Positions 1-21,079 of a DNA stretch of 64,000 nucleotides are shown here, piece after piece. The stretch comes from Microbotryum violaceum (lineage: Eukaryota): positions 744,001 to 808,000 of the forward strand of contig CDLV01000009.1 of assembly GCA_001244265.2 (NCBI GenBank), read 5' to 3'. Numbering within the stretch: the stretch's first letter is position 1; every line of letters begins with the position of its first letter. The notes under the pieces are model-generated. The model had not been told where the DNA came from. It saw only the letters and a list, made by a program, of their open reading frames with translations, and did no database searches. The position numbers and the translations under genes are program-made.

Positions 1-1
1 G

Positions 2-322
2 AAGAATAAATCGGTCACATTCCAACCTTCGGCCAACACGGTCAACACCAAATCGATCGTTGAGGAGACGCAAGGGATCGGGTTGAACAAGGCCAATGCG
101 AAGAAGGCCAAGAAGGACAAGAAGAAGCTTAACAAGGTCAACAAGGAGGCGAGCGAGTTTGAGAGTCAGTTTGGCGAAGAGGCGGATATGGTTGGGAATA
201 AGCCGAGGAAGAGCAGGGTTGTGGCTGGGGGCGTGGTTGGGGAGGCGTATTCGTTTGAAGAGTTCTTTGGGAAGAAGGATGGCGAGATTCTTCAGCCTGA
301 GGATGACGAGGAAGAGTTGTGA
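2..322 (+). CDS. 3' end of a gene entering from the left; Lys-rich then acidic C-terminus, possibly a nucleolar GTPase (Nug1/GNL3-like) tail
   Basis: Open frame from window start (KNKSVTFQP...KKAKKDKKKLNK...EAYSFEEFF...DDEEEL*), followed by AT-rich 3' UTR-like sequence. The family guess rests only on the C-terminal Y-x-F motif. Confidence 0.5.
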   Translation, partial: KNKSVTFQPSANTVNTKSIVEETQGIGLNKANAKKAKKDKKKLNKVNKEASEFESQFGEEADMVGNKPRKSRVVAGGVVGEAYSFEEFFGKKDGEILQPEDDEEEL

Positions 323-624
323 GGATAAGGTGTTTTATCCTGGATTTGTAGTCTATTCTTTTTTCCATTCTCTCTTCGTCCATGCATGTCATGTATATCT
401 AGTCGCGCTCCTTCCTATGCCATGGGAGCAACCGCACAAGTTCGACTTGCGGTCTCTAATGCAGACCAGCGAGCAGCCCTCTCTAGAACATCTCTACCAC
501 ACCAACCAGCCCAAGAGCAAAAACTAAAACTCATGCTTCGACGTTACAGAAAAAGAAACTCCATCCATCATTGCCAGCCTTCCGGCCATACTCGACCCTA
601 CTGCGTCCAAATCCTGCTCGTCTC

Positions 625-1328
625 CTACCCATCACGACGACGTTCGATCTGCAAGAACGGGCTGTCAATTTTCTCTGTCTCCCAGACGGAGTTTGTGGCG
701 AACGCTTTTGGGGCTTTGGGTTCGGTCTGTGTGTGCGCGTCGGGATATGGGATAGGAGGTGGTTCCAAGCGGTCGAGCGGTGGTGGATTTTCGCCGGGAG
801 GGAATGGGCGGACCGAGCAGGTGAGAAAAGGTATTTCGTTAGGGTCCGTGGTAGGATTTCTGAATGAGTGGTATGCGTGTAATTGAACGTACAGACTGTC
901 CTCGCAGACTGCCGGTCAATCGTCGATCGCGCTCCATCATATTGACCTCCCACGTATCCAAGGTGTGTCGAGCGGGCTATGTGCGAGAGAATTACGGTAA
1001 TCAGTATAGAGCGTTGTGTCATGCACCGTGTGAAGTGGATCGGTCGTACCTTGCCATCGTTGGTCATTCGACGGGCGGCGGAGAAGAGCGTGCCCGTCGC
1101 GGCGAACATGACCGTCAACAGGCCTGTGAGAAATCAAGGTGGATGGAAGCGATAAGCACACAGATCATATCATGCATCGCGCTAGAATAGCTGCCTGGCC
1201 TGAACGGACGGACCAAAGGGGATCAAGGCTTCAAAGGGGACAGGCTGCGATGCGGTCGGCCATGACAAGCGGGAGAGTGTTTAGCTCAGTTCCAGCTGGG
1301 ACAGTCCAAGCGATTGGTCACTCACCAT
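625..1328 (-). CDS. NDUFA1: NADH:ubiquinone oxidoreductase subunit NDUFA1 (MWFE / fungal 9.8 kDa subunit), 5 exons
   Basis: Spliced by GT-AG introns: M|PVPFEALIPF|GLLTVMFAATGTLFSAARRMTNDGK|PARHTLDTWEVNMMERDRRLTGSLRGQS|TEPKAPKAFATNSVWETEK...*. MPVPFEAL and MMERDRRLTG are typical of fungal NDUFA1. Confidence 0.9.
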
Positions 1329-1442
1329 GGTCGTAGATAGTGGATCGAGCTGCGATTGAGCTGTATGTGCGAGATGTGGACCAGGGAATGAGCGGCGTCG
1401 GGAAGTCGTCGGGAAGTCGCTCGCTCTCGCACCTCCAAGTCT

Positions 1443-1585
1443 CCAGATCGGCAGGTCCGTTAACCCAGCCAAATGAGCTCCCCCGCGCGGCGAGTTAAGG
1501 CAGCTTTTTTGTTTTTTGGCCCGGTTGGAGGTTGGTACAGGTCGGGTGCACCAATGCCCTCCCCTCCCCATCCCACCCCGGCGCA
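1443..1585 (+). repeat. Left terminal inverted repeat of the KDZ element
   Basis: Begins CCAGATCGGCAGGTC, versus CCACCTATGCGGGTC for the reverse complement of the right end. 1531-1560 GTTGGTACAGGTCGGGTGCACCAATGCCCT matches revcomp(12891-12920) GTTGGTGAGGGCGAGGTGCACCATTGCCCT at 23/30. The block CGCGCGGCGAGTTAAGGCAGCTTTTT...TTTGGCCC also matches. Confidence 0.8.
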
Positions 1586-1590
1586 GTGCA

Positions 1591-1594
<4 letters not shown>

Positions 1595-1625
<31 letters not shown>

Positions 1626-3890
1626 ATAGACTTCATTAACAGCATAATTATATTAATACCTAGAAATCTTCGGAAAAATCGGAGGGAATGCTGTTACGCA
1701 CACTGGCAGAAGCCAGTAGTGTAGGACTCATTGACCCTGAACCAGGATCAACCATACCCACTAAAACCCCTTTGGTGTCTTACAGAGACACTAGGCGACC
1801 CTTGGACTCCTGGATAGAGGCTCGAAGCCCCTCGAACTCCGTTTCGGTGATCGGTTCCAAAAGATCCGACGAGAATCGACGACGGCGACAAAGCTTCCAG
1901 ATCGAGTGAAAGAAGAGGACTCGTAGTTCGACAAGTCGACGTTCCGAGCGAGACACGACCGGGCATACAAAGTCCACAAAGACTGGGTGGGGGTCGGGGA
2001 CAGAGCAGACCAGAGGCGCCGGGCAAATGGGCAGCCGACCGCGAGGTGAACCAGGCACTCGGTGCTTCCGAGAGGCACATCACACAGGAGGTAGATCGAT
2101 TGTTGCGATGTGGGCTGGTTGGGGAGGCGACTTGGCTTCCCGGATGGAGGGACCCCAGGGAGAGAAGGTGGCCGGTATCCTCGGCGTCCGAGTGAACCCG
2201 GCGAACCTTGCGCAAAGCCTTCCACCAAGCGTTCCAGCTGCTCAGGCAGATCGAATACCTTCTGGTGTCCCTTGGGGAAGATAGGGGGGAAGATGAAGAC
2301 TTGGTGGCGTTTGGACGCGTTCACAAACGAAGACGGGGTCATCACCTCGCCATCGGGCCCTCGAAAAAGCGTCGGGTTTACCGAGAGTTGTATCCCGTGG
2401 CCCGCTGGGAAATAGAGTACGTGCGTCGCCCATTGCTCGAAGTTCTGGCTCTTGGAGAGTTCCGGGGGATTGAGCGTGGTCACCAACGCCCAGGCTTCGA
2501 AGTATCGGACCCAACGAGCAGGAAGAAGTTTTGTCGTCTTTCTCACCGCATGGTCCCACTTTGGGGAGGATGGCAAAAGTATGCCCACCGGATCCAAATC
2601 CAAGGCAACGATGCTGGTTGGGGGCCGGTCTGGACAAGGTGAAAGGGGTTGGTTCGTTTGGTGCCTGGAGGCGGATGCGGATGTCGAAGAGGTGGCGTGT
2701 GAAGCAGCCGTCCGGGGCCCGGAGCTGGAAGACCCACTTCGCGTGATCGATTGCTAGACGCCGAGGCAGATCAATCAAACCGAAGCCGCCGTGATCAAGA
2801 GGGGTGCAGAGGCGCGACCGGGAGACCTTCGGACGTCGCTGAGTACCATCCGAAGCTCGACCGTGAATGGCGAGCATTGCGGCCTCCTCGATCTCCTTGA
2901 CAACGCTCTTGGTGGCGGGAAGGAATCGGCTGTAGTACAAGATCTTTGTGTAGCAGTAGATGTTGTTGATCGAACACTTGGCTGCATATGGGAGATCGTA
3001 CATCGGAATTGAGCGTATCCGAGCGATGGTCGAGGCCTTGACATCTTCCCAGCCCGCATCCTCGGCGATCTCCACCCCGACCTGAATACCAAGGTAGCGA
3101 AACTGCGAATCGCTGAGACGCCAGGTCCCGAGATCTGGGGCGATCGACCGATCCCGAAAAGCTCCAAGGGGGTAGAGGAAAGATTTGACGTTGCTGAGCT
3201 TGCTGGCACTTGCCCGTTCGTAAAGCTCGATCGCCCGATTGAGGTGGTCGAGGTCCGAGAGGTTGTGGAGTGCGCAGCAAGCGTCGTCGGCAAAAAGGAG
3301 TTCGCGAACGTTTTGGAGGCCCGCAATATCGACGCCCTTGACTCTCAATCGAATCTGACAGGCAAAACCTTCGATCGCCAGGACGAAGAGAAACGGAGCC
3401 AAAGGATCACCTTGCTGAACGCCCGACAGGATGTCGAAAGTGGCAGAGAGCCAACCGTTGAGGAAGATCGAGGCAGATTGGTTGGTGTAGGTCGCTCGTA
3501 CCATTGGCGGGCTTTGGGGCCGAGGCCAACGGCGCAGAGGACTGCATCAAGGTACGGGTGGGAAAGACGATCGTAAGCCTTTTCAAAGTCCATCACCGCT
3601 AGCATGCCAGAGAGCCCGGAAGTCCAGGGTCCATGAGACATTGGACTTCAGCGATGTTCGTGCCGATCCAACGGTTCGGAACAAAGCCACGTTGGGTTGG
3701 GCCGATCAGGGACTCGAGCAAGGGAGCGAGGCGCTGGTTGTGGGCTTGCGAGATGATGCGCTCGTCCGCATTGATGAGCGTGGGGCGTTTGTTCGAAAGC
3801 TGATCCCTCTCGCCGCGTTTGTGGATGAGATCGATGTGGGCGGTGTTGCGGGGAAGAGGTCCAGGCTGACGGGCCTCAAATGGTCATAAG
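1595..3890 (-). mobile_element. 5'-truncated non-LTR retrotransposon (L1/Tx1-like LINE) with poly(A) tail; RT ORF frameshifted
   Basis: 30-nt poly(T) at 1595-1624 is the minus-strand poly(A). RT motifs LIHKRG...QRGFVPNR, DFEKAYDR, GVQQGDPLAPFLF, LFADD, FRYLG and GGFGL, plus a degenerate C-terminal CCHC-like knuckle, are spread over several frames. No endonuclease or ORF1 present. Confidence 0.9.
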
Positions 3891-4469
3891 TAATAAGGGG
3901 CCACTAGTTCGTGTAAAACTCACCATCATCACGAATAACACTTTCCGAAGACTCCGTCGTAAGTTCGAATTATGTCATAAATGTCATACAGCTTGTCGTA
4001 CTCAGTCCATTCAATTCGTGTAGTTCCGTATAACATCAACTGATATGTGCACGACAGATCCTGTGTAGACCTTTTCTCATATTCGACGGAGGGAGTACAC
4101 ACCGCGTCTATTGGGCCCGAGGGAGGGATCGGTCGTGGTCCCTGAAATCCTGGATCGGTCCTCGAGCAGACAAACGCTTATTCTGAACGGTGTGCACCTT
4201 TTTATATAAAATGGATATCTAGTGAAGCCCCTTCGGACGATCGACTTGGGTCCAGCACCAATCAGTCCTGCATCAATTCCTAGAGAGTCATTGAAGAGGC
4301 AAAATTGAGGCGGGGCTGTGCGGCCGCACGCGGAGCTCAGATTGGCGAGCGCTCTGCGTTGACACTTTGACCTCTGCGCACTCACGCCAACGCGACAACG
4401 CGCACCCTTGACCCACGCCACGCCCCGCATCTCACTACGTTGAAATCTCCCTGCGCCTGTTGGACGAAC

Positions 4470-6596
4470 ATGGATGCTATTACCGTATGGAGGTATGTGG
4501 ACGCGTTTCCCCGCCTCACATCTCCCTCCTCATGGGCCTAATTGTGTTGCTCCACCATGACGCGACCGTCAGACATACGCGTGGGATCTAGGGAAGGTTC
4601 TCCAGCAGAGTCTATTTCCTTTGGCGCTCATCCGAGTGAGTGCTCTTGTCTGGTGTGCCAACTGAGATCCCTTGTAGCAGGGCTGAGAGCAGAGTGCCAG
4701 TCATCAACCTCATCCTTCTATCTACTCAATCCTGACGGACAGCTGAAGAATTCTCAGTTCTCTCACACCTCTTGCAGGTCGGAGGGACGATCAAAGCCGT
4801 CGAGCCTCCTCACAAGCCAGTACAATTCTGGATGAACCGTCTCGGCGCCCGACTCGGAAGAGAAAGCGGCGCATGCCCGTGCCCCAAACCCCTTCGTCCG
4901 ACTCCGACTCTGACGAGCCCAATTTGGGCGATTCCAGTCAATCCTCGGCTGACGACAGTGACAGTGAAAGTGACAGTCACAGTCACAGTGAGAGCGAGTT
5001 TGAAGATATCGCGATCGACCATCGAAGAGCTATCAGGCTCTGGACGGCCATACATGGCTCGCATCGGAACGCGACCGGTCGTATGAGTCAAAGAAAGTGG
5101 ACCTCGCTGAAGCGCTGGGCCGCTCGAAGATATTACTCGGAGCTCAAGATGGCCGCGAAACTCGGCATATCTCATGCAAGGCTCGTTCAGGCCGTCAAAA
5201 AGTTCGACAGGCTCGCTTCGAAGGGCAATGCGTGGTCTAGATTTCTCTCGGACCCTGTAATCAAGGTTTTACACTAGCGAGCAAGCAAGGGTGAGTGGTC
5301 CTCCGGGCGCTTCCGGTCATGCCCACTCCACTCTCCTACGCTCTCGCTTATGCTTACCGCTGCGTCCGCAATGTCTGTTCTTACATACCCTGGGTGTGTC
5401 AAACGTGCTCAGAATCGGATCAGTCGAAATCGCAATCCATCACCAAACTTGCCGCTCACCTCTGGAACTTCCTGAGAGATCAGGGGGACCTCGCATCTGC
5501 CCAACTTGGCGAGGACGATGAAGAGCTTGTTCGCGCGGCTTTTGCAGCGGCAGAGGCCGGAGGTAATACGACTTTCACTTCGATAGTACCACCCACCATC
5601 ATCACACGGTCGCCATCCGACATTCCTTCCCCAACTCGGATGGAGCAATGCAAAAAGTACATTGCAGAGTTGCGAGACCTGGCGCAACGCATGTCCAAGC
5701 TGTACGGAGTGGAAACCCTGGCCTTTATTGTCCCTCGTTATCAAGACGACGTGTCGCCAGCGACGAAGGCGACCGTGCATTCGATAGGTGGGCTCAGATT
5801 TGCAGCTCACTGCAACGACTTCAAGGATCCATCCGGCAATTCCTTGTTGTCTAATTTTGCTTCCAAGATGAGCTGGGATGAGACACTCAAGGCCAATGAA
5901 GCGGCAGATCTGAAAGAGGGTGAGCCTTTCATCGCAAGTTATACGCGCATGAGACCAAGTTACCGTTACCAATTATGTGACATATGTTTTCGTCTCATCT
6001 ATCAGCAAAAACTCGCTCGATGGACAGTGCTACTCGTGGCGTTCTTGGCAAATGGCACGGCACTCTGTTCCGCGCCCAACTCAGTAAGTAGTCTGCATCT
6101 GATCGGGCTCGACTCCGTGCTAATCATTTCCGTCTTTACAGACTCTGCCCTCGAGACTATACATCGCCGTTCCGACACGGGATCATCGACAGGCGCTTTC
6201 ACACCTCAGAAGAAGATGATATGGTCTACCCAGGGCTTGAAGGCACTGGGTGTCAAATTGCGGATCAAGCCCGGAACGAAGAGTAGATACGAAATGGCTC
6301 TGCATCATAGTGCAGAGACATCGCCCAAGCAAACCGTTGCTCAGCTCAAGGCTATCATTGACGACCTCCGTCACGGCCGCCTCGCTATCGTACCCTCGGC
6401 GGACCCGAACGACAACACGGAGGCAGAGGCAAGCGACAATGACTTGAATGGCGGAGAAGGACCCCTGAGCCCAAGATTTGGTGGAGCCGGGGACGAAGGC
6501 GGAGAGGTACGCGGCGGAGAAAAAAGCGGAGAAGAAGATAGAGAAAAAAATAGCGGGGGGGGGGGGGGGTGGCGGAGGAGACCGGAGGATGAATGA
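4470..6596 (+). pseudogene. KDZ accessory gene, multi-exon, with an HMG-box-like region; one in-frame TAG at 5275-5277
   Basis: ATG at 4470 (MDAITVWR|gtatgt), basic NLS-like RKRKRR and an acidic Ser-rich tract. Then ...KGNAWSRFLSDP...SITKLAAHLWNFL (HMG-like helices), and LAQRMSKLYGVETLAFIV. Lies between the TIRs, convergent with the transposase. Confidence 0.6.
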
Positions 6597-7409
6597 AGCA
6601 AAACATCCTCGATGTGAGACCGTTCTTATGTCTTTCTTTGGGCATACTATGCTCTGAGTCGGTCTGCAAGATGACCGATATTTGTTATGTCTCTGTGGTT
6701 TGTGACGCGTCTTTCAATGTAGATCCTTGAGTTTAGTTTCAGACGATTGTCATGCACGCATACAGCGTCTCAGCTGCCATCTTGATTGTGGCAATTAATC
6801 TTAACAGGATTGTAAATCAATACGATCAAAACGCTCATTCTGTCAGGCTCCGCCAAGATCACTGGGCATACTCGAAACCGCCCCCCCCCCCCCCCCCCCC
6901 AGCGGACCGTTTCCTACGTCAAGGCCCGGGGCCCCTGTGTGCTCCGGGCGCCGGCATCCCGTTCATCTACGGCCACCCTTCCAGAGATTACGCTGGAGTC
7001 TTTCTTCACAACCAATCGTTCCGCACCTTTGTCCTACAAGGACTCGGGCGCACCGCATGGGCCGCAGCACAATGGTGTGGCGCTCGCATCCAGGCAAGGC
7101 GACATCTCTGCGCATCTATTTACCTTTGGGTCAACGAAATTAGAATAGCTCTCGGCCGACGCATCTCCTCTTTCTTCTTCTTCTTCTTCTTCACTTGTGA
7201 TGTACAACCAAATGGCCATACACCTTTTCCAACTTCGACCTCATCGCCGTTTCTTGCGCCTCCCGTTTCAAACACACGTGCGAACCGATCCCTCCTAATC
7301 ATTATCATATCCATGTATCCATGCTTCGTCCGAAGGCACCGTACCATTGACCGGGTCTCGTTGCACAAGTCTGTTTGACCTTTTGGCCTACCGTTGTCTT
7401 CTTCCCTTA

Positions 7410-8420
7410 GATACAATCTGACTTCACCTTCAGGTCGGACCGGTTGCCACTGCATAACCCTTAACTGCCTGCGCGCCGCAAAACCGGACGGTGGACAACT
7501 GTGAGGGCATTCGGTGGGACTGCAATACAGGGGTCAGACGACAGCTCGACCTCTCCTTTCATGTCTCATCCTGAATTCACCCATCGTCGCAACTATAAGA
7601 CCCAACTGAAGACCAAGAAGATGACCATCACAATGATGACAAGACGGTATGTCTCGTTGAAAAGAACTCTGAAAACACCCTCCCGGTTTGGGTACTTTCA
7701 GTCTGACTCCAACACGACGCGTTGTCCACCTTGGGTTTGAACCCTGATTGGTGTCACAAAATACTATATGACCTGCCATCGCCGAAAACCACGGCAGGGC
7801 AGTCGGTCGGTCGATATTAGAAGGAGGCCTAGGCCACAACAGCGTGCAGAACTCTCAAGCCGCCTAATGCGATGAGAAAACGTAGAGCAACGACAGAGCA
7901 AGGGGTGTATCAAGGTGAGTCTGACTCGCTCGTGGCTTTGTTCAGTCAAATACAGCACAATACTTTGGGTATGGGTGACTATGACTTGCTGCAGTTCGAC
8001 TGTTGAAACGCAAGCGCCCGTGATGACGTACTTCGCATCGAGATTACAGTGAGCGTGTGAACTACGCAGGAAGGAATTGCGACAAAGCAGTACGCTGGAT
8101 CAGGACTTCTTTCAAGTATACATCAAAATGTAGTCGGCAGTGTTGGAATATAATAAGTACTTTTGAAATCCCTGCTGACTGTTTGGGAAGTGTCACCCAA
8201 GGCACGACGCGGACTGCGCATGTGCCTGACTGGCAGGGAGCGCGATCTACATGTAGGAGATCTCAGTGCAGTCAGTGCAACAAAGATGCAATGGACGCTT
8301 GTGTTCACTCCCTCAGCGTAGCGCGCTCTTCCTCTAAATCTTACCGGTCGTGTTGGGCTCCGGCTGCCAGCTTTACTCGAGCGACATTAGGCGAGCCACC
8401 GCAAGATCGAGCGATTTAGC
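7410..8420 (+). pseudogene. Decayed third cargo gene inside the KDZ element
   Basis: Exon-like blocks bounded by cag/gtatgt/gtgagt give protein-like peptides broken by stops (VGPVATA*PLTAC...EDQEDDHHNDDKT; LGLNPDWCHKILYDLPSPK; ACELRRKELRQSSTLDQDFFQVYIKM*SAVLEYNK). Confidence 0.35.
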
Positions 8421-8574
8421 GATGCCGGGTCTTGGATGTCTGATCGCTCTTGTTGCACTTCCTGGCGAAGCGTCGTATAACGGGTAGAATTACTAGCGAA
8501 ATGAACGCATAATTTATCTCTTTACTAGTGCAAGTAGCAACTGGGCAAAAGACTGCAACTATATATGATCAATA

Positions 8575-11500
8575 TCAAATCCCCCAAAAAACATCGCCAT
8601 CGCCTTCATCAAAGTTCTCGTTGATCTCGTCACTGAAGGCGCCGTAATCGGTAGTGTCGACGGAATGATGACTCAGATCATCGCTCGAATGATCACTGAT
8701 GTCAAGAAGGGTGTCATGATCCGTGGTGATGTCGTCTGACTCTCCGACCATCCCATCATTGATGCAGTCTGGCCATGTGTGATCCGGCAAGCCACCCGCT
8801 GTGGTTCGTTGAAAAACATCAACGTCGTCGGTGCACCACATTCGAAGCTCGACCCACTCCTCCACTTGCGGTTCGCCGGTTTGCCGGGTGCATTCCCACA
8901 GGTGATCTAGGCCGCCCTTCGAAAACCATCGGCGCGCAATATTTCTAAGACGCTCTTCTTCTTGCTCGAGCATCATCATCGCAGAGTCATCCTGCTCATC
9001 TCGTTGGAGTGATTGCTGGCGAACTTGCTGAAACCGTTTGCGACGGCTTATCAGCCACCGTCCAATGCGACGCACTTCCCATCCAAGTCGCTTGATTTCT
9101 TGCTGGCATCTTGCGCGAGACAATACTGCTGGAATGCCGACACGAACATCATTATCGTAGGCCACGGCTCAGTGGGATGACTATATAATCCGTTGTTCCA
9201 GAGCGGCGCCAAGATGTCGAGTTTGAGCAGTTCGTTGAGATCCTCTGGGGCTGACGGCGGTACCCTTCGGGTTCTCAAGATCGAATGGGAATCCTCAGAA
9301 TTGGCGAGGATGGCAGCATACTTTTTCACCTCGTCGTTATACATCGCCACTGCCTTCATGAGTCTTGGACGCAAAGAATTAAGATTCTTGACCAGGAGAC
9401 CAGCCGCTTTCGTACCTATGAGCTGGCATTGCTACACATCAGCGTTCCTTCTGCCGGCGCAGAAGACTCGTACCATGGATTTCCTACCGAGGGCTTTACC
9501 GCCTAGGCACGGGAGCCGCAGCTTCTCAGCTCCCTGTCGATATTGTACGACCAAGTCCCACAGCGAGCGAGATGCGATAATCAAGGTGCAGGCAAATTCA
9601 TAGTCCGTGCCAATCAAAGGTATTGAAATATTAAGCGAGGACAACGGGGATCACACCAGAGGGTCAGAATCGAAGAAGGGAGTGACGTACCAGGGTCCAG
9701 GACACTGATGTTTATGTCCGACGTGCGTAAGGAGTTAAGTCGATCATCAAGAACCTGCCGTTGTTTGGCCAGCTGTTGAAGTTTAGTCGACTGTTCTATA
9801 AGCTTGTTCGTATCTATGGTGTTCACGCAGGCTAGGTCTTCCCTGTAGCAATCGAAAAATGAATACCGAAGTTAGGTTACCGGTTCGTGTCTCACTCCCA
9901 AACGACGACGATAGCTCAGACCCACCGGCATGCTGCGATGTCTCTGTTAATCAGCTCAAGCTTGAACATGACGTTGCGCATCTCGGCTACCTCTTTGCGC
10001 TGCTCTTTCAGAGGGATCTGCTTGGACGCTGCACGTTGCGCGTGTCATTGTTCAAGGAGGGTAGCAACCGTCCATTCGGCGGAGCGATTAACGACCTCAG
10101 CAATGACTCTGTCGGCTTCGGCCTTGAGCTTGATTGCGTTTTTGAGTCGAGAATTAAGTTTGGTCACTGGGCATGATCGATACGCCAAAGATCAGCGACA
10201 TGGTAAGGTAGTGCATGAAAGACTGGACGCTTAGGCGAACCAAGTTCGGCCAGATGCTGCTTGTTATAAGCAGACGCTCGACGATTGATGTTCTCCAGCC
10301 GATGGGAGGCACTGGATGATCGATTCATGGGTATCATGCCTCGAAGCTGCGACCACAAGCGCTCGGCTCCCTCGGCATCAGTCAAACCAAAACTGGGTAG
10401 AAAGCGCGGATCAAAGTCAACCTGGCAGGACCACTTGTGCGCATAGGCATGCATCGACGAGAGAGCAAATTCTAGACGCGGTAAGTGGTCTGCCAGAAGA
10501 TTGCGCTGCGCATACCGGGGAGAGATGAGCTGTTCAGCTACGGACTAAGCCAATGCTCAGGCTGAGTGTCACGAACAAACTCACACGGCGTAAGTGCGAC
10601 GATAAGTTGCAGGCGATATCATACGCGACTCCAACGCGACTTCGATCCTGCCTCGAACTTTGGTGGGAGCCCGATCCCTAGCTGGATCCGACGTTTGTAG
10701 CGTCACTGGTACGCGCAGGTCCCGTAGTACAATCCGTTTCTCCGACTTCAACTTCTTCGAGAATCCATTTCAACAGCGACACGGGATATACTAACCTGCG
10801 GTAGACCGAACTCGCTTATTAGTGTCCTTGCCTGGAGTCACAGATGGCCGGTCCACACATACTTTTCACCTGATTGATGAAGGTTGCAAAGTCGCAGGCA
10901 ATGATCATGACGGCACACTGCAGCAACGAGGCCTGTGTCGGCTACTACATTTGACGAAGCGGAGGTCACACCACCATCTGCGGCCTTCCAGTTCGCTGTG
11001 CATTCGTCCTATATGATAGAATAGCCCGTTTAGCAATCACAGACAGTCGGGTCAACGCATTATTGGGTTCGGGTGACCCGACACCAGCAGCACCAAGTTA
11101 CCTGCTCGCCCGCTTCAGTCGATCCGTCGATCAAAGCTTGCTCGCTTCGAATCTTGTCTGGTGACAGGAATAACGCTGGACGTGACTTGAGAGGATCAGC
11201 AGTTGCCCGCGCGAATCGTCGATGCTGAAAATTGCCGTCGACAGCAATGATGACATCGAGGTCATTCTCGCTCTTGCCGGCTTCATCGATCCGAGGCCCA
11301 AAACATGCCGGACAAACGTCGGCCAGACGCTCGCGCGGGGAGAGGCTGATAAATTCGGCGGTCAAAGTTGCCTGCAGCTGTTGCATAAATCGATATTCAT
11401 CCATTGCGGCTTGAAGATGCTGACGCACGGTTGGACCCTGGGAAGCTTCCAATATTTTCTGTAAGAAACAGTGAATGTTTCCGGCCTGTCCCTGTCCCAG

Positions 11501-12741
11501 AGCCCACCTTGTTAAAAGGATCCTCCGGAGATAATTCAGAGGACCAAAAGAGAATGAGCGCTTTGGACATGTCATAGATACCAAAAGGATCTACCCTCCA
11601 GTAGGTGTCGAGATATTCGATCGTGCGAAAGGTGAATGCGGTGATGCCTTCTCTTTTTCGGATTGAAGATGACGACGTCGGGAGAAGACCGTGAGCTGCC
11701 AGGGTTTGGATCTCGGGATAGCATGGGCAGTATCGTAGTTCTCGCATGCCTGCTCATGGTTGGGGGTATCAAATCAGTCCAAGACGATAGCGTAGGGGTG
11801 ATTGACAAAAGATGTGCAGCAGAAGCACCTACCTGCAAGAAACAGGTCGACAACCCGGACCTTTCTGGTGACTCGGCGTTCATGACATGCGTCGCACCAC
11901 CCCTCGTCGTCTGGGGAAGGGACAAACCCGCTCTGTCGAAGCACTTCTTTGGCCTTTTTCTTCAGCAATAGGTACGCCTGGAGAAGTTCAGCTCGTTTTG
12001 ACGCCCTAGTTTTAGCTTCGGCCCTCGCATTCCGGCGACGATTGCGCTGCTTCTTGGCGTTCCTCTCGATCTGCGATCGCTTAAGGGAAGAGGGCGCTTG
12101 GTCTTGAGAAGCACCGTCTGGGTGGAATGGCGAATGCTCCGGTCCAGATGAGTATCCACCGCCGAAATCGCGACCGAAGTCGTAGTCGGGCTCAAAGTCG
12201 GGCGCGCTGTTAGGCTTGAAATTGTGCTCGAAGCCGCCGGTCTCGGTGTCTAGAGGCCACGCCGTTGCGCCATCGGCAATGTCAGTCCAAGGCTCGGACG
12301 ATGATTTGTGGAGGCCGGCAATGAATTTCTCCGAATGCTCCTTCCGACGACGCGTTGACCTCTGGACTGATGGTGATGTGGGAGGGCTCGGCTGACGTTT
12401 CGGACGCCTCTTCGTTGGAGAGCGGAAAATACCGAAATTGAAGCCGAACGTCTTGTCGAACAGCTCGCTATCCGGGGACAACGATGGCTCCCTTTTCCGT
12501 ACTCGCTTGGTCCATAATTTCCTCTTCTTATTCTTCGTCTTCGCCTCCTCCTCCGTTCCGACCGACGTCGTGGCCCCATTCTCGCACGTGTCCTTGTTGC
12601 TGCTGGTCACCTTCTTCTTCCTCCTCCTCACGGTCGTGCTCTTCTTGCGCTTGGTCTTGTCAGGCGTTTTCCCTTCTCTGTTCCGACTGGCGATGCTGAG
12701 CGAGGTTGTAGAGGTGGTGGTGTGTGTGGTAGGATGTCCAT
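8575..12741 (-). pseudogene. CxC1-KDZ (Kyakuja) transposase, multi-exon, disrupted
   Basis: CxC1 (WCDAC...VRVVDL...YCPC...LAAHGLLP...TAFTF), CPACFG, VDGNFQHRR, DTGLVAAVCRHD, GEK, YDIAC, MHAYAHKWSCQ, GLTDAEGAERLWS. In-frame TAG at 10680-10678 and a probable 1-nt frameshift just after the ATG at 12741. Confidence 0.88.
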
Positions 12742-12869
12742 GCTTGAAGCGGTGGGTGCGAGCCTGCAAGGCCTTGGTTGGAGGGAAGTGGGGGGAACTC
12801 GTGGTGCTGAGGCAGATGGACCATGAGCGGGGATAAGTAGCAAGTGCCCGGATTAGTGACCACTTTTGC

Positions 12870-13011
12870 CTCCGGGGGCTGGGGGTTGGCAGGGCAATGG
12901 TGCACCTCGCCCTCACCAACGTTTTCCTGGGCCAAATCTTCAAAAAGCTCCCTAAACTGCCCGCGCGCGGGGTAGTATATTTGTTAGGCTTATTTTGACC
13001 CGCATAGGTGG
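12870..13011 (-). repeat. Right terminal inverted repeat of the KDZ element
   Basis: Imperfect reverse complement of 1443-1585. Ends ...GACCCGCATAGGTGG, directly followed by the TSD CAAGTCT. Confidence 0.8.
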
Positions 13012-13130
13012 CAAGTCTCCGCCTGTCTCCGCTTCTCGTTCACCGGCGCTTGCTTCTTGCCAGCTCATTCGCCGCCCCGTCCCATCAGCCCCACTCCGCA
13101 GCTCTCTACACCTCCATCCCCTCTCGAGAC

Positions 13131-13366
13131 ATGGCTCTCCCCAACCTACGCAACATAGTGAGCATCGTACAGATTGAAATACTGACCCCTTTTCTCGCCC
13201 CAACTCACCCAATCCCCTGCCTCAAACTCTTCAGTTCGCCTCCTTCCGAACCGCGCACGAAGAACGACAATACTCCCAGGCCGCTTTTTATAAATTCGTT
13301 GGCTTCGTACTTGTTTCACTTGGGATGAGCTTGGTCGCTCATAAAGGGAGGAGGGCAATCAGATGA
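13131..13366 (+). CDS. 52-aa single-pass membrane microprotein, 2 exons (13131-13157, 13235-13366)
   Basis: MALPNLRNI|FASFRTAHEERQYSQAAFYKFVGFVLVSLGMSLVAHKGRRAIR*. The 77-nt phase-0 intron has a GTGAGC donor, CTGAC and a CAG acceptor. C-terminal hydrophobic helix followed by a basic tail. Confidence 0.7.
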
Positions 13367-13399
13367 GCCCCCACGGGAACGGATCGGACTCGATCAATC

Positions 13400-14620
13400 C
13401 TCACGAGGGCACGAGCCGACGACTGAGGTGTTCTCTTGGGGTGTAAGAAGCCCCGGGGGGAGCTCTTGAAAACCATACAAAAAGTAAGTCTGCTCTATCA
13501 TACCTTGCTTCGTTCCCACCGACCACCAAAACAATCATGATGATCTCCAATTCAGCAAAAGGTAGACCCCCCCTCTTTGGGAGGTCAAACAAAAGTGCCG
13601 AAACACCATACCCCTCCAGCCTTATCCTCGTCTATCTCGAAACGATCCCTCGACTTGCTCTAACCCCCTGACGGACCGATCCAGTCGACCTCGAACGCAA
13701 TGACTAGAAAAGAGCAGGATCTTCGGAGGAAGAGTAACCCGATGCTCTTTCGTTTTGGAAGAGTACCGTGCGTTTCTTTTCTTACGACGACCTCCGCTTC
13801 TCTATCAAATTTCGGTTCAACCGGCTCCTGGCTTTATTCGTGGGTGCGAGTCGATTCGTTTTTTTGAGATTCATGAACATCGGGTCGTGTGAGGGTGTCG
13901 GTTCATGTCGACTTTTTCAAAAAAGGCCAGAACTGAATTATGTACTCCGGAGGCGGACTTGGCTCTCTCGCTTCTTTGTGTGTTCGTTTCGGGAATAAAA
14001 CGAAAGCTGATCCTGTTGATTTTTCGGAACTTCCGGCACTATGCTTTGAACGACGCAAAGGATCGATCCTTCAAAGACGAGGTTGAAGGGACGCCCGCCG
14101 CACCCGCCGCTCAAGCTTCCTTTCTTCGGCGGGGGTAGGAGGAAAACCCCGACACTGCCCAAGTCAAGGTCGATCAACCCAAGACGCATGATTCGCAGGC
14201 GCCTACACTGGGCCAGTTTGATTTCGAGTGAGAACTGCAAAGGGTTTTTCTGGCAGCAATTTCGACCCTTGCTGGATGATAGCGTTGGTCAGTACTTTTG
14301 GCTAGGATTGACGAACTCGTGTTCTCAAAAGATCTTGCACCCAGCAACTTGAAAGCTACCCCAAGTTTCAATTTGGTGATTCGCGATCTTTTGGCCCGCG
14401 GAGACTAGAACATGAACTTCAGTTCACCGTCGAGAGCGAAAGCAATGGTGGGTTTTGACGGTGAACTCGAATGGTAGTGCAAGAACCCTTCGAAACCCAA
14501 TTCGTCCACCTTGACGAAAAAAGGCATGATCAACACTGTCCGGGGAAGGGCCGAATTGCCACTGCAGTAGGAAACAATGGCCGTTTTACTCGGCAACGGG
14601 CCAATTTGGGATTCAGTTTC
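13400..14620 (+). pseudogene. Possible decayed multi-exon gene relic
   Basis: Intron-like segments (gtaagt near 13484, gtcagt...aag near 14288-14331) and protein-like stretches broken by stops and frameshifts. No recognisable family. Confidence 0.25.
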
Positions 14621-14788
14621 AGTTTCAGTATCATGTCAAAGATTAATTACGGATTGGGTCTTTGCGAGAGGAGGAAAGGGTTGTAATATCTGTCCCGAGT
14701 CCTCTTTTTCTCAGCACTCCTATCTGCCAACCCTTTGCCTCTTCACCACCACCACCACCGCAAATTATTTTTCTGTCCCGAGTTGGGA

Positions 14789-16212
14789 TCAAACGTTGAC
14801 ATTCGGCTTCTCGTCCGGTGCATTCGTCGTCGTCGTCTTCGCAGTAGGATCGGCAATGGTCATCGTCGTCGTCACCGCCGGAGCGCCGACCAAAGTGGTC
14901 GCGACGACCGTTGGGCATTCCCTCGCGATATGTCCCTCCACACCACAAGCATAACACGTCTTGGGTGGACGAGGCGCACCCATCCCCATCACTCCAACCC
15001 CCTTGACACCTCCCCCGATCGCTCCATTCTGTTGAGGAGGTGCGGTACAGAATTTGGCTAGATGGTTCGGTTGACCGCAATTGTAACAAATCGATCCGGG
15101 GCGACCGACGAAACCGACGTGATTATTCAATCCTCCTCGACTACCACCGAAAGGTTGGAATCCACCTCGGAAACCGCCTCGGAATCCACCTCGGAATTCA
15201 CCTCGGAATCCACCGCGCGGTACGAATCCGTTACGTTGGACGGCGTTGGGCGGCGGTGCATTGGGGTGCGAAGGGACGGCACCACCTTCGGCGTTGGGGC
15301 ACGATCGGGCGATGTGGCCGAATTGACCGCACGAGTAGCACTTTTGACCACCGATCGAGGCGCTGCGCGAAGGGAGGAGAAGAGAGTAAGTGATGGGGAG
15401 ATCGTTCGCACCGAGATGAGAGGTGGGGGGACGCCGAGACTGACTTTTGGCGCAAGGTGGGACACTCTGAAGCCAAGTGACCAATTCCACTGTGCGACGA
15501 TAAAAGGTCTGCATCAGACTTGGTCACTCGATTGATAACCCTCCAGCCGAGCACACACACCTGCATCCATAGCACTGCTTGCTGTCGTTGGAACGGGGCT
15601 CGGGGCAGACGTTGGACTCGTGGTCAGGGCTCTTGCAGTTGTAGCTGGGAGGGGGAGGCGAATAAAAATGAGGTTAGCTTGATCTGATGGCAAGTTGATA
15701 TGGGACATGGACTCCAGGACCAGTTCGTGCTGCCGGCCGCGACAACTCGGACTTTCGAAAGTGAGAGAGTGTTATGAACACTTACCACAAGCGAGTGGGG
15801 CTACTGCAGTTCTCGGCGATGTCTGTGGAAAGTCGATACATAGATAAGTGTTTGCCCATTTCGCTGATGAACGTGGGTGATTACGGAGCCTTACGGGACA
15901 AGGAACCACACTTGAAGCAGCCTTTGCGAGAGAGAGGGATCGACCTGGGGTGGGAGGCGAGGCGAGGGGGAGGGGTGTCAGTTGCGGGGATCTTCAGAGA
16001 GGGGGACCAAAGGGATTTAGTGATGTCGCTGTAATGATGGGCTCGTTCCAGGTCGAGTGTGCTCCGGTGGTGAGGTCGTCGCTCGTCAAGGCCGAGGTGG
16101 GACGAGCCGAGGAGGTTGCCCGAGGTGGATCATCGCCGAAGCACGAACCCAAGGCAGCGCGAGACGATCGAACCTCGAAACAAGTTCACCGAGGAGAATG
16201 ATCGGCTCACAT
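14789..16212 (-). CDS. GIS2: CCHC zinc-knuckle / RGG RNA-binding protein (Gis2/CNBP family)
   Basis: Spliced MSIPLSRKGCFKCGSLSHIAENC...CYNCKSPDHESNVCP...CYGC..GHLASECP...CYSCGQFGHIARSCP, an RGGF repeat tract and two further CCHC knuckles. Start codon inferred to be split by an intron (AT|G). Confidence 0.85.
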
Positions 16213-16922
16213 GTTGACCCAGCGCGGGTGCTTACGGTCCGGGTTCTGGTGTAAAGATGCGGGGGTGGTCGGTTGAGCGCGAAGACGAGATCTTGGATGC
16301 GCGAGGAGGCGAGATCGAGCTCGTCGTCTGCTAGTCTGCTAGTCTGCTAGTCTGCTGCTGCTACTGATTCTACTTTCTGCTTCTGTTCTTCTCTCTTGCC
16401 GTCCTGCTACTCTTCCTTCGACCCTTTAAAGCGTGGAAAGGGGTGCAAAAGAAGGGGTCCGAAGGTGTGAGATGAAAGGGGGAAAAAAAAAAAAGAGGTG
16501 GCGGAAGGGAGAGAGGGGCGAAAAGGAGAGGAATGAATGCCTGCCCGCCCGCATCGCCGGGAAAGACGTCAGAGAAGCCGAGGCGCGCGCGCGGGGAATG
16601 AGAATCCGAATTCCAGCTAATAGTCTGGACCCATCGAATTACTGATTTCCAATTCGGATGCAAGCGCATCAGCCGGCCGGGGGTGAAACTTTGGATCGTC
16701 ATGCTCATTGATTGGAGGCAGAGCAAAGGGCTCGAGTAAAGTCTGAAGAAATACTGATTTTAGAAAAGGGCGCCAAACTTGAAATAGAGAGAGAAAATGA
16801 TCGCGCTACAAAACGAGAGAGAGAGAGACGCCCGCTATCAGCATCAGCAGCGGTCTCTTGACCCCCCACCACCCAAACGGCCCGGCATAAGTCGGCGACG
16901 CCAAGCTCTCGAATCAATCAAC

Positions 16923-17942
16923 ATGTCGAGCGGATTAGAGAGTCAGTACGCCTTTCAACGCTTTCGAGGTGGTGTCTGTTGACTGACCTTGCTTTATCGA
17001 CTGCACAGAGTCCTTGTTCCAACTCAAGGTCAGCCTCCTGGCCCCCCCCCACTCCACGACAATCGTATGGACGATTCCACCCTCCCGGCCCAACACTGAC
17101 TGGAGCTCTCAATCACCTGCACAGTTTACGACCAAACAACTTCAAAAACAATCGCGTAAAGCAGCCAAGGATGAGACCGCGGAGAAGGCCAAACTGAAAA
17201 AGGTACGTCGATCCGAATGATAGAAGATTCACATCCCCGATCTAATGATCCAAGCTTAATCCTTTCGCTTCCGTTTCACGCATCAGGCTCTACAACAAGG
17301 CAACACGGAAGGAGCTCGGATCTATGCGTCGAACGCGATCCGTAAGAAGAACGAGGCGTTGAATTTGCTAAGGTTGAGCTCGAGGATCGATGCCGTTAGT
17401 TCGAGGGTCGAGACCGCCGTGACGATGCGTCAGGTCAGTACGGGGCGAGGGCGAGGGCGATCGATGGGGATGTGCGAGTCGAAGAACTGATCGATTGGGT
17501 TTATCAGGTTACGGGTTCCATGACGGCTGTGGTGAAGAACATGGATCGCGCGATGCAGGACATGAACCTCGAGAGGGTACGTTTCCGTTTCGACCCCGGT
17601 CGCTCTTTCATCCCCACTTCTCTTCGCTAACTCTAACCTGAATAGATCTCGATGGTGATGGACAAGTTTGAAACCCAATTCGAAGACCTCGACGTCCAAA
17701 CCGGATATCTCGAAGGCACCTTGTCCTCCGATACGGCGATCTCGGCCCCGACGGACCAAATCGACTTACTGATGGCCCAAGTCGCGGACGAAGCAGGGTT
17801 GGAGGTGCAGCATGAGTTGGGGCAGAGCGAGTTGGGGAACAAGATGCCCGAGTTGACGACGCCGGTCGCGACCGAACAACAGGAGGATGCGTTGGCGGCG
17901 AGGTTGAGGGCGCTTAGACCGGCTGCGGCGACGAGTATGTAA
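16923..17942 (+). CDS. DID2: ESCRT-III-associated Snf7-family protein Did2/Vps46 (CHMP1)
   Basis: [30 protein letters not shown]...[28 protein letters not shown]...[14 protein letters not shown]...[12 protein letters not shown] across GT-AG introns. Confidence 0.93.
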
Positions 17943-17981
17943 GGTGGCTGAGGGTGCATAGGTGTTTTCTTGTAATACTTT

Positions 17982-17983
<2 letters not shown>

Positions 17984-18045
<62 letters not shown>
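17984..18045. repeat. (CT)n microsatellite
   Basis: About 31 uninterrupted CT units downstream of DID2. Confidence 0.95.
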
Positions 18046-18253: not shown

Positions 18254-18700
18254 TTATGCCAGAGGCGAGATCAACCTGGGTCGGGTTCGTACGCCGTACG
18301 CGACGTTCAGCGGCGAGATTCAAAAAAGAAACCAAGAGGCCCATGCAAAAGACGGTTGGCTTACTTGATAAGGTTCGGTCTCGGGGTCGAGTTGGTGTAG
18401 CCGACCCAAAGGATCAACGGAATCCAACCATAGTGAGCGACCGTCTGAGGGGGGGTTAGGGTGTGGAGAGGGTCAGTGGTGGGTGGTTTGGGTAGGTGAG
18501 GTAAGGAGAAGGAGGTACCTTGGCGTATTCGACCGTTCGGACGATGATATCCTGGGTAGTGTGGCCAGATGGTGGGTGTGGCGCGCAACCGAGCAGCAAG
18601 CAGCAGCAGAGACCATGTCGGATGGTGTGTCAGCAGTCAAGTCAGAATGGGAAAAGTCCTGGGGGACGATGCGACGGACCTTGGTATCCTCGGAAAGCAT
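18254..18700 (-). CDS. TOM7: Mitochondrial outer-membrane translocase subunit Tom7, 4 exons
   Basis: MLSEDTK|DIIVRTVEYAK|TVAHYGWIPLILWVGYTNSTPRPNLIK|LISPLA*. HYGWIPLIL..GY...P..L.SPL is the Tom7 signature. Confidence 0.92.
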
Positions 18701-18931
18701 CGTGTACGAGTTTGGGGGGTGTATGTGGTCCAGGTCAGAGCCGCGAATCTGCGGCGAGCTTGTCAGGACCTCTGGCTGTCAGGCATGTCAGGAGCGCCTC
18801 GCAGCCGGCTGCACGCTCAAATTCGATGGGATTCTAATTCAGAAAGCTCCGGTTCGATTCGCGGCGCTTCGACTGTCCGTGCTGATGCGCTTTCCTCTCA
18901 CACCCTACCCTACACACCCATTCGACCCCTC

Positions 18932-21079
18932 ATGTTGAGCCCGACGGCGTCGCTGTCGCTCCAACTCTTGTCGAGGAGGACAGCGCTGTATGCGTATGCG
19001 TCCAATGCTGCCTCCACCACCCCCGCCGCCGCAGTCGGACCCGCGATGACGCGCACTACCCGCAACGCGGCCGGCCTACTCTCTGCTTCGTCCTTCGCTG
19101 CACGTCACCGAGCTTATGCGACCCAGCAGAGTGGAAACCAAGCAGCTCCAGCCGGGGAGAACACGCCCATTGCGGATACCACGCCTGCCACAGCGACGGA
19201 GGCCCCTTCGCAGCCAGCCGGCTCACCAGCACCCACCTCCACCTCCACCTCCACTGCCACTGCCACTGCCACTCCTAGCGATCCAACCCCCGCACCTTCT
19301 GCCACAACACCCTCCGCATTGGACCCTATCTTAAGTACCTCCCCTACCCCACCCGCCGCCGAGGCACCCCTCTCTACCTCCTCAACCTCCCCCTCCTCTT
19401 CCGAATCCGCCCTCTCCCGCTCGAGTTCCCTCGCCGAATCCTACCTCGACTACACCGAAGTCGTCGCGAACCCTACCCAAACCCGAGGTTCGACCTTCCC
19501 CGGCGATACCACCAAAGCCAAAGCCAAAGGATCGGGCACCAAATCCTCGATCGAACAGAAACGAGCGAATCTCACCCGATTCTTCATCGGAGCCGGCCTC
19601 CTTTCCCTCGGCTACGGCGCTTGGTCCTTGGGCAAACCCTGGGAGAACGAAGCAGAGAGGCTAAAGTTGTGTGGTAGGAGCGAGGACCAGGATGCGATCA
19701 AGGGCGCAGAGTTGGGTGGCTTCCAGGGTTGGGTCGCGAGGACCAAGTTGAGGGGGTTCGACATCCTCGATGTGAGTGTCGATCTCGACCGCTCGCCACC
19801 ACCTCCTCCTCGAGCAGAACCTTACTTTCTGTTCGTCCCCCCCCCGCATACAGTACTACAACAAACCGGCTTGGGACCCTCTCTTGCCAAGGCCCCTGCC
19901 CGAACCCCATTACCGACCCTATACGCTCGTCATCGACCTCGACGACATGCTCATTCACCCGATATGGGATGTCAGTCAACCCCTCGAGAAGCGAAAAAAA
20001 AAAAAAAATAAAATAAAATAAAAAATCTCACACCATGCCAACTGATTTTCCCTGTCTTTTTCCTTTCTCTAGACCAAACATGGTTGGAGGACGGCCAAAC
20101 GTCCCGGCGTCGACTACTTTCTCGCTTATCTCTCCCAGTTTTACGAGATCGTGCTCTTCACCTCTCAGCCTTCCTATGTACGCCGTACGCGCCGGCATAC
20201 GGTCAAACCCGATCACGAGCTGACTCTTTGTCTTGGTGATGTAGACTGCGGCGCCCATCGTTGAACAGCTCGACCCTTATGGCGCTTACATCCCTTGGAA
20301 GCTCTACAAAGAGTCGCTGAGGTTCAAGAATGGCACCTACATCAAGGTGCGTTCTTGATGCGATGAATCCTCTCCAGCAACTTGTGCTTACACGCCCATC
20401 ATCTTATAAACAGGATCTCTCTTACCTCGACCGACCGCTTGAACGTACCATCATCCTCGACACCGACCCCACTTACACCCAACTCCAACCGACGAACGCG
20501 ATCCATCTCACACCGTGGAAAGGGACGCGCGGGGACCCGACCTCGAAAGAACTCGTCGCTCTGATCCCGTTCCTCGAAGCTTTGGCGGTCAGGAGAGTGC
20601 AGGACGTTCGACCGGTCATTCAACACTACGAGGGGAAACATATCCCGACGGCCTATGCCGAGGTCGAGGCGAAGATGAAGAAGGAGCTCGTGGACAAGTG
20701 GGAGAGGGAGAGGCAGGCGATGGGTCAGGGGTGGGGGAGGTGGGTGAGGGAGGCATTTGCGGGAATCGCAAAGGTTCGTCATATCGCGAAAACATACCGT
20801 GTTGGGTGTGATGATTCACAACTGATCCTTCAACCCCGCGACCTACAGAAACCCTCGGACCAACCCCCCGAATTGGACATTGAGAAACAACGCCGCATTT
20901 CGCAAAAATTGTACGAGGAGGAACAAAAGTATTGGAAAGACAACGAGGCGTTGATCAAGAAGCAGATTGAGGAGGACAAGGAACGGCAGTTGAAGGAGAT
21001 GAAGGGGAGCTTGTTGACGTTTATGGGAATCGCGCCACCGCCGGGACAACAGGCGCCGGAAGCGCAGGCGGGAAGATAA
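18932..21079 (+). CDS. TIM50: TIM23 complex subunit Tim50
   Basis: Arg/Ser/Ala-rich presequence, TM segment ([15 protein letters not shown]), [68 protein letters not shown] (FCP1-like domain). Confidence 0.93.

Follow-up and report, generated by a model that had tools for sequence, protein, structure and literature searches.

A probable KDZ transposon copy, now inactivated, with placed ends, an empty allele and two convergent genes in Microbotryum

The stretch analysed here (the window) comprises 64,000 nt of Microbotryum violaceum contig CDLV01000009.1 (positions 744,001 to 808,000, forward strand), and near its left edge lies a segment, 1443-13011, that opens with CCA and closes with TGG. 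We consider this segment very probably to be an old copy, since inactivated, of a multi-copy transposon that moves by cut-and-paste and belongs to the KDZ (Kyakuja/Dileera/Zisupton) superfamily; its host genome is that of an anther-smut fungus (Microbotryum). An initial annotation of the same DNA had proposed a KDZ-superfamily DNA transposon with both ends placed, and the KDZ domain, the terminal inverted repeats (TIRs), an empty site and a step in sequencing depth all bear this out. The CCA start, the TGG end and the CAAGTCT on both flanks that it described were read directly, and its size of ~9.3 kb for the element without the inserted long interspersed nuclear element (LINE) holds. The features are listed below by position in the window (TSD, target-site duplication).

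1436..1442, no strand: left TSD copy, CAAGTCT; the direct repeat continues to 1444 as CAAGTCTCC
1443..1586, plus strand: left TIR, ~144 nt, imperfect, beginning CCAGATCGGCAGGTC; 102 of 139 aligned bases identical to the right end
1595..3877, minus strand: LINE (a non-long-terminal-repeat retrotransposon), 5'-truncated, close to the inner edge of the left TIR; T-run on the plus strand at 1595-1624 as its poly(A) tail; reverse transcriptase remnant at 2242-3546
4557..6596, plus strand: accessory gene of five exons (4557-4635, 4778-5290, 5413-5919, 6006-6083, 6142-6596), whose product would be ~543 aa
6597..8574, no strand: non-coding spacer of ~2 kb between the convergent genes
8575..12775, minus strand: KDZ transposase gene with CxC1 cluster and KDZ DDE domain, multi-exon, ~1200 aa in intact copies, defective here
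12861..13011, minus strand: right TIR, ending ...CATAGGTGG
13012..13018, no strand: right TSD copy, CAAGTCT; the direct repeat continues to 13020

Ends, target site and alleles in public sequencing runs

The two ends of the segment resemble each other in inverted orientation, as had been described at the outset, and alignments, shuffles and blastn agree on this. An end-anchored global alignment (1443 onwards against the reverse complement of the sequence ending at 13011) yielded the 102 identities among 139 aligned bases listed above, colinear over ~145 nt. The repeat finder recovered inverted arms at 1480-1569 and 12882-12971 (90 nt, 71%), and blastn between the ends reported 73.6% across 91 nt (E = 7e-7). 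The local alignment score of the two ends was 59, compared with 17.7 ± 2.3 in 200 shuffles (maximum 28). Conserved blocks, e.g., GGTGCACCAWTGCCCT, lie within the TIRs; the similarity halts at the start of the LINE and none was found beyond it (score 19 versus 19.2 ± 1.9 in shuffles). A blastn search with 1301-13200 found no second copy of the element or of its ends within the 64-kb window, the T-run being the sole other match, and the 22-nt left terminus had 0 exact matches in the metagenome contigs scanned.

Alleles of the insertion were sought in public sequencing runs, of which 22 are listed for window positions 8012-18011 and 21 contain part of them. Four runs (X1, X9, X14 and X20) were mapped on window positions 1-15000 at 80% likeness, and the mapping results given here are the best-supported rows, with a further 336 loose ends, 37 joints and 4062 contig pieces beyond those. 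One X14 contig (43,697 nt, single-copy depth 27.7) covers 1-1408 and 13025-14046, with 17 letters (CTCGCTGGCACCCCCGA) between. Compared by eye, CTCGCTGGCACCCCCGA and the following GTCTCCGCTTCTCG line up with window 1420-1444 and with the sequence to the right of the element. The X14 allele is without all of 1443-13011 and carries the target motif once, as CGAGTCTCC; the check suggested with the initial annotation, namely an empty site in a related strain that joins the left and right flanks around a single motif, thus came out as predicted.

Filled sites occur in two other runs. In X1 (organism A), contigs cover 1-1472 and 12953-14108, and in X9 (organism B) they cover 1-1478 and 12984-15000; the insertion is therefore common to two labelled organisms. 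With 2 differences from the window in 1478 nt, X9 is near-identical and perhaps not an independent witness; X1 comes from another study. Summed contig depth in the flank bins was 10-11 (X1), 22-27 (X9) and 20-29 (X14), and in bins 4001-13000 it was 101-186, 229-470 and 40-196, respectively. The unit is multi-copy, with a sharp, about ten-fold depth step in the bins that hold 1443 and 13011.

Could the inverted and direct repeats have arisen by chance, in a nested repeat cluster without defined ends? In favour of such a cluster, the TIR arms are only ~73% alike and the window holds no second copy. This explanation is nonetheless hardly credible, given an alignment score 18 standard deviations over the shuffles, a contig from another strain that joins exactly both flanks, and a depth that goes from single-copy to ~ten-fold in the bins holding 1443 and 13011. 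It is also quite unlikely that the X14 allele is the product of an excision or deletion rather than an ancestral empty site. A 10-nt insertion or deletion (indel) directly to the right of the X14 site, together with other small changes seen by eye, could be a repair scar; the motif is single, however, with neither a doubled TSD nor a footprint, and indels are common along that flank (19 gaps in 1408 nt), so that an extra one is unremarkable. In either case, the element is a discrete unit with these ends.

The length of the TSD allows more than one reading. The direct repeat spans 9 bp, CAAGTCTCC, at 1436-1444 and 13012-13020 (left flank: ...CACCTC CAAGTCTCC AGATCGG...; right end: ...CATAGGTGG CAAGTCTCC GCCTG...), and the chance of seven identical bases at two fixed positions is ~6e-5 by hand arithmetic. 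The empty allele in X14 has CC after the heptamer; hence the repeat can be read as a TSD of 7 bp that the element's first CC happens to continue, or else as a genuine TSD of 8 or 9 bp. We regard 7 bp as the probable length, favoured by end symmetry: the ends are symmetrical only in register 1443/13011, with CCA at both ends and 10 of 20 matches, versus 4-7 of 20 in eight other registers. The extra CC, meanwhile, may be a 1-in-16 coincidence of the target with the element's first two bases. A TSD of 8 bp (CAAGTCTC, element 1444-13011) appears rather unlikely, since this octamer, repeated on both sides, would leave asymmetrical ends, and a TSD of 9 bp (CAAGTCTCC, element 1445-13011) appears less likely still. 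What speaks for these longer forms is the 9-bp span of the repeat itself and the CxC1 plus KDZ architecture and long TIRs that the element has in common with KDZ1-3 of Cryptococcus. Published TSDs point the same way: Dileera (Zisupton-1_PGr), Zisupton and KDZ1 are reported with 8 bp, and KDZ2/3 with 4-8 bp (PMC12730594, PMC11343200, 10.1101/2025.05.19.654958). The X1 contig end at 1472 is also no less compatible with a start at 1444 or 1445 than with one at 1443, on reasoning that assumes random flanks, several other copies and contigs built from 31-letter words. The initial annotation thus placed the TSD correctly on both flanks, and of the lengths that it raised (7 bp, or 8-9 bp), end symmetry makes the first the best reading.

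Several points weigh against our interpretation of 1443-13011 as a KDZ transposon copy delimited at these bases. Only a single copy is readable base by base, and both the stagger and the exact terminal bases rest on it; the contig ends at 1472 (X1), 1478 (X9), 12953 (X1) and 12984 (X9) fit starts at 1443, 1444 and 1445 about equally. The X14 flank has diverged ~4.5% from the window (64 other letters and 19 gaps in 1408 nt) and therefore represents a diverged lineage. Two small indels sit beside the X14 site: to its left one GGGAAGTCG repeat unit of 11 nt, to its right the 10-nt GTCTCCGCCT. Because of them the aligner cut at 1408 and 13025, and the breakpoint was set by eye instead. Nor does summed contig depth amount to a copy number. 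X20, the run used for splicing below, is of unrecorded kind, and we take it as RNA solely because of its splice-like joints. Finally, mobility is read from the empty site, and the role given to the accessory protein is a guess.

Two further observations concern the sequence around the insertion. Short tandem repeats adjoin the site (1400-1419 and 13014-13030), the left flank having two units of GGGAAGTCG and the right flank two of GTCTCC, and both differ by one unit in the empty-site lineage. An X1 contig (depth 8.9) runs from 1465 back to 1444 with one A between, which is an apparent 22-nt tandem duplication of 1444-1465 at the start of the left TIR or an assembly artefact.

Two convergent genes and their spacer

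The element carries two convergent genes, each beginning near one element end. Within the transposase gene, Pfam KDZ (PF18758) was detected in the window exons at 10167-10544 (E = 8e-19) and 10841-11008 (E = 1.3e-11), and CxC1 (PF18802) weakly in the exon at 11400-11753 (E = 0.0046). All 13 word-search matches to the exon at 11063-11590 came from Microbotryum silenes-dioicae or M. saponariae (65-95% identity), including full-length forms of 1195 and 1227 aa. In full-length homologs, KDZ reached E = 4.9e-48 (P0004, 1227 aa) and 5.7e-48, covering profile positions 2-215 of 217, and CxC1 scored 28.8 bits in P0004 against a cut-off of 26.9. With tblastn, matches to the full-length homologs P0004 and P0007 spanned 12772-8578 of the window, the individual segments being 81-97% identical. 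Eight CT..AC joints in X20, e.g., 10166/10241, 10505/10585, 10790/10863 and 11007/11101, mark the introns of this gene.

In an alignment of 28 sequences, D442 and E660 never vary and conservation at D595 is 90% or higher, with the motifs DGNFQ, YDI.C and DGEG.ERLW; the window exons carry the same motifs as IIAVDGNFQ, AYDIACN and DAEGAERLW. That the D, D and E of the RNase-H-like core are the catalytic residues is taken from the literature. The element thus combines the KDZ domain, an N-terminal CxCn cluster, the acidic D/D/E and a discrete unit (TIRs, TSD, several copies and an empty site), the features by which the KDZ superfamily is recognised.

The initial annotation had described a three-gene element. 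Four GT..AG joints in X20 (4635/4778, 5289/5412, 5918/6005 and 6083/6142) give a different model: with the introns removed, the open reading frames (ORFs) 4747-5277 and 5295-6596 fall in one frame, with a lone TAG at 5275-5277 between. Both are exonic parts of a single gene that a premature stop interrupts, and the element therefore has two genes and a non-coding spacer. All 19 word-search matches to the accessory ORF are Microbotryum proteins of 296-493 aa, and five transposase/accessory pairs have locus tags no more than two apart (C001g00911/00913, C010g05987/05986, C045g12205/12203, C045g12227/12228 and Chr6-3g09011/09013). The earlier label of cargo is accordingly doubtful; the gene is linked to the transposase as a constant partner in this family rather than an optional passenger, and neither a TET/JBP nor an HMG domain supports that label.

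The character of the accessory protein is less plain than its linkage. TET_JBP gave no match among 64 element-region ORFs (24 + 40; Pfam at E <= 0.01-0.05), and no TET/JBP or HMG Pfam domain was found in the element ORFs or scanned homologs. A helix-turn-helix profile, HTH_50, matched the exon ORF at E = 0.0013, below the Pfam cut-off. The PDB sequence search gave a best E of 0.099, the structure search a best Z of 6.7 on a helical segment and non-specific, and ESM Atlas unnamed Basidiomycota clusters only; the AlphaFold2 model had a mean predicted local distance difference test score of 39.6. An HMG-box-like pattern (NAW..F ... I.K....W..L) was noticed by eye in this protein, had no tool support and is not claimed. 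As a constant companion of the transposase, the accessory gene is a testable candidate cofactor for KDZ transposition.

Between the genes, spacer ORFs had no Pfam match, and depth in X20 was 9-13 at 7001-8000 and 9-92 at 7001-8500, versus thousands over the genes. A poly-G/poly-C inverted pair lies at 6553-6578 and 6878-6903, ~300 bp apart; its reads were passed over as repeats in mapping, and one run is without 8 letters at 6555. A joint from 5927 to 7961 with AT between, found in both X9 and X14, marks a deletion derivative in which 5928-7960 is gone, and with it the 3' half of the accessory gene and the larger part of the spacer. Its depth is 83.5 in X9 and 72.4 in X14, ~3x the flank depth in those runs.

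Decay, expression and the inserted LINE

The copy in the window is dead, a point missing from the initial annotation. In the transposase, an in-frame TAG at 10678-10680 stands where homologs have S and an in-frame TGA at 10045-10047 where they have W, and a 1-nt deletion at 9161 shifts the frame; the extra C after 9161 is present in all depth of X1, X9 and X14 and in about half of X20. No usable transposase start was found either, as the frame opened by the ATG of MDILPH... (12739-12741) is closed by a stop after 39 codons, and in the main frame AAG takes the place of the P0007 start M. The TAG at 5275-5277 of the accessory gene corresponds to Q in intact homologs. With stops or frameshifts in both genes and a LINE inside, this copy therefore cannot move on its own; at best, intact copies could mobilise it in trans. 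Depth in X20 is in the thousands over both KDZ genes and both are spliced there, from which we infer transcription and splicing of both family genes, the source copies being indistinguishable.

The LINE is identified by its reverse transcriptase remnant (Pfam RVT_1, E = 2.2e-7). It is 5'-truncated at 3877, beyond which other LINE copies extend further (loose ends of runs), and no clear TSD was found around it, only CCTC microhomology at the 5' junction. The LINE family has by far the highest contig depth in all four mapped runs, and in X20 reaches ~20,000-122,000, where the KDZ genes stand in the thousands; the family looks both highly abundant and strongly transcribed.

To the right of the element, a minus-strand ORF at 14792-15523, 1.8 kb away, encodes three CCHC zinc knuckles (Pfam zf-CCHC, E = 2.3e-20) and may be either a CNBP/GIS2-like gene of the host or what is left of a retroelement gag. 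Further on, a plus-strand ORF of 483 aa (18560-20025) has no Pfam match and ends at an A-run (19994-20025) that matches the LINE T-run; it may represent a further retroelement with a poly(A) tail, or a retrocopy.

Affiliation, proposed mechanism and known systems

A full HMMER search with P0007 returned 1959 relatives at E <= 1e-3, the best of them outside its own cluster being 37-42% identical, and a profile word-search returned almost solely the same Microbotryum proteins. Among 48 relatives scanned, KDZ was present in 48, CxC1 in 36 (E <= 1e-3) and a C-terminal Ulp1 peptidase in 7; CxC4, CxC5, CxC6 and SWIM were found in none of them. The CxC4 and SWIM of Zisupton (PMC11343200) were also absent from P0004, P0005 and P0007, which at E <= 1 matched only KDZ, CxC1 and one chance-level match. 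A FastTree tree (no bootstrap) was built from the core domains of 136 of 153 sequences, 17 having been dropped for covering fewer than 200 profile positions, and clade membership by name draws on 30 of 150 listed representatives that were looked up. The Microbotryum family falls in a 14-row clade (FastTree support 98) whose named members P0035, P0036, P0037, P0039 and P0044 are from Rhodosporidiobolus, Microbotryum, Microbotryomycetes sp. and Phenoliferia; P0040 and P0041 are also Microbotryum. A second clade holds all rust proteins looked up (Melampsora and Puccinia) together with Atractiella and Phenoliferia, and a third, among the representatives looked up, is mostly Agaricomycotina.

More distant relatives were recovered from metagenome contigs, where the transposase profile led to 80 loci being kept (23-34% identity). 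No relative of the accessory protein was found at these 80 loci by tblastn (E <= 0.01) or by a hidden Markov model of an accessory-protein alignment (A1). When the loci of at least 7,000 bases (n = 24) were tested for long-range inverted repeats, only L054/L055 and L057 had them. At L054/L055, the inverted repeats do not flank the transposase match and no TSD is readable. L057 (11,965 nt) places a distant KDZ relative between inverted ~106/212-nt tandem arrays (1-566 versus 10310-11965) that run off both contig ends; its terminus style is unlike that of the Microbotryum element, and again no TSD is readable.

The initial annotation had assigned the element to the Kyakuja clade, which we consider doubtful. 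A 7-bp TSD and CA...TG termini are reported for Kyakuja-1_LB and Kyakuja-2_LB (PMC12730594), and the best reading here is 7 bp with CCA...TGG, in which CA/TG lies one base in. In that account, however, those families are said to have no TIRs, so that the CA..TG ends without TIRs of Kyakuja in Laccaria differ from our ends with their TIRs of ~145 bp, and TET-carrying Kyakuja is placed in Agaricomycotina only, with Dileera in Pucciniomycotina (PMC12730594). Also against the assignment are the position of the transposase in a Microbotryomycetes clade (14 rows, support 98) beside the clade with all named rust proteins, the assignment of the CxC1 plus KDZ transposases of Cryptococcus to Dileera (PMC11343200), and the lack of a TET/JBP gene among the 64 ORFs scanned. 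Overall, the architecture, the TIRs and the Pucciniomycotina relatives appear to lean Dileera-like, and the TSD and the ends Kyakuja-like.

By analogy with DDE transposons in general and with the experiments on Cryptococcus KDZ1-3, the transposase would bind the conserved TIR blocks and excise the element, probably with assistance from the accessory protein. Insertion would follow at staggered cuts, most likely 7 bp apart (8 or 9 being conceivable), and repair would yield the duplicated CAAGTCT. It is tentatively conceivable, and in our judgement improbable on balance, that the family is a still-active, Microbotryomycetes-specific KDZ lineage with a private two-component transposition system (a CxC1-KDZ transposase and a helical, HTH-like partner of ~480-545 aa outside the known families) on which it would depend, mixing a Kyakuja-like 7-bp stagger and CA/TG-type ends with Dileera-like long TIRs and CxC1. 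Behind the suggestion of activity stand ~ten or more copies, intact transposases of 1195-1227 aa in sister species, the RNA-like splicing and presence/absence differences between lineages. If it were true, TSD length and the presence of TIRs would not be clean clade markers within KDZ.

Bounded, cargo-bearing KDZ elements were published in 2024-2025, so the premise of the initial annotation that KDZ boundaries are usually hard to call is out of date (PMC12730594, PMC11343200, 10.1101/2025.05.19.654958), and the element is a further KDZ member and confirmatory in this respect. In the literature searched, judged by title and abstract of the papers listed, we found no description of KDZ elements in the genus Microbotryum. 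What is given here is a base-level annotation of such an element, with its ends, duplication, gene models with introns and empty site, and the termini and two-gene structure can seed family-wide annotation. Microbotryum is a model for the build-up of transposable elements on non-recombining mating-type chromosomes.

The closest published counterparts are KDZ1-3 of Cryptococcus neoformans (Huang et al. 2024, PMC11343200; 10.1101/2025.05.19.654958), which measure 9.2-10.9 kb, have TIRs of 139-241 bp, TSDs of 4-8 bp, CxC1 plus KDZ transposases and further ORFs whose function is not known, and have been recorded inserting into FRR1. The Microbotryum element is like them in size, long TIRs, CxC1 plus KDZ, additional domainless ORFs, a short TSD and a basidiomycete host (PMC11343200). 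It is unlike them in that KDZ1-3 jump in the laboratory, whereas the present copy is dead and its mobility is read from the empty site; KDZ1 in particular has an 8-bp TSD and three coding genes, compared with 7 bp as the best reading and two genes here. No Cryptococcus proteins were among the 30 looked up by name from the 150 best representatives.

Complete Kyakuja elements are described with a 7-bp TSD, CA..TG ends and no TIRs, and Dileera with an 8-bp TSD, both carrying TET/JBP (PMC12730594). With Kyakuja-1_LB and Kyakuja-2_LB our element has in common the KDZ superfamily, ends containing CA...TG and, on the best reading, a 7-bp TSD. It differs from the Kyakuja families of Agaricomycotina, which are given as having a TET/JBP dioxygenase and no TIRs, and its host belongs to Pucciniomycotina; the Kyakuja-1_LB consensus opens with CACA..., ours with CCAG... 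(PMC12730594). Like Dileera of rusts, e.g., Zisupton-1_PGr of Puccinia graminis, it is a KDZ element in Pucciniomycotina, and rust proteins in the neighbouring clade carry CxC1. Zisupton-1_PGr differs in its 8-bp TSD, a consensus that opens with GACC... and its TET/JBP gene (PMC12730594).

Identity between the transposase and named rust proteins is 32-36%, and these rust matches are not equated with the published Dileera families. Outside KDZ, PIF/Harbinger is a two-gene DDE transposon that pairs a transposase of an unrelated superfamily with a Myb-like DNA-binding partner. The Microbotryum element resembles it in having a family-specific second gene always linked to the transposase, here with a weak helix-turn-helix signal.

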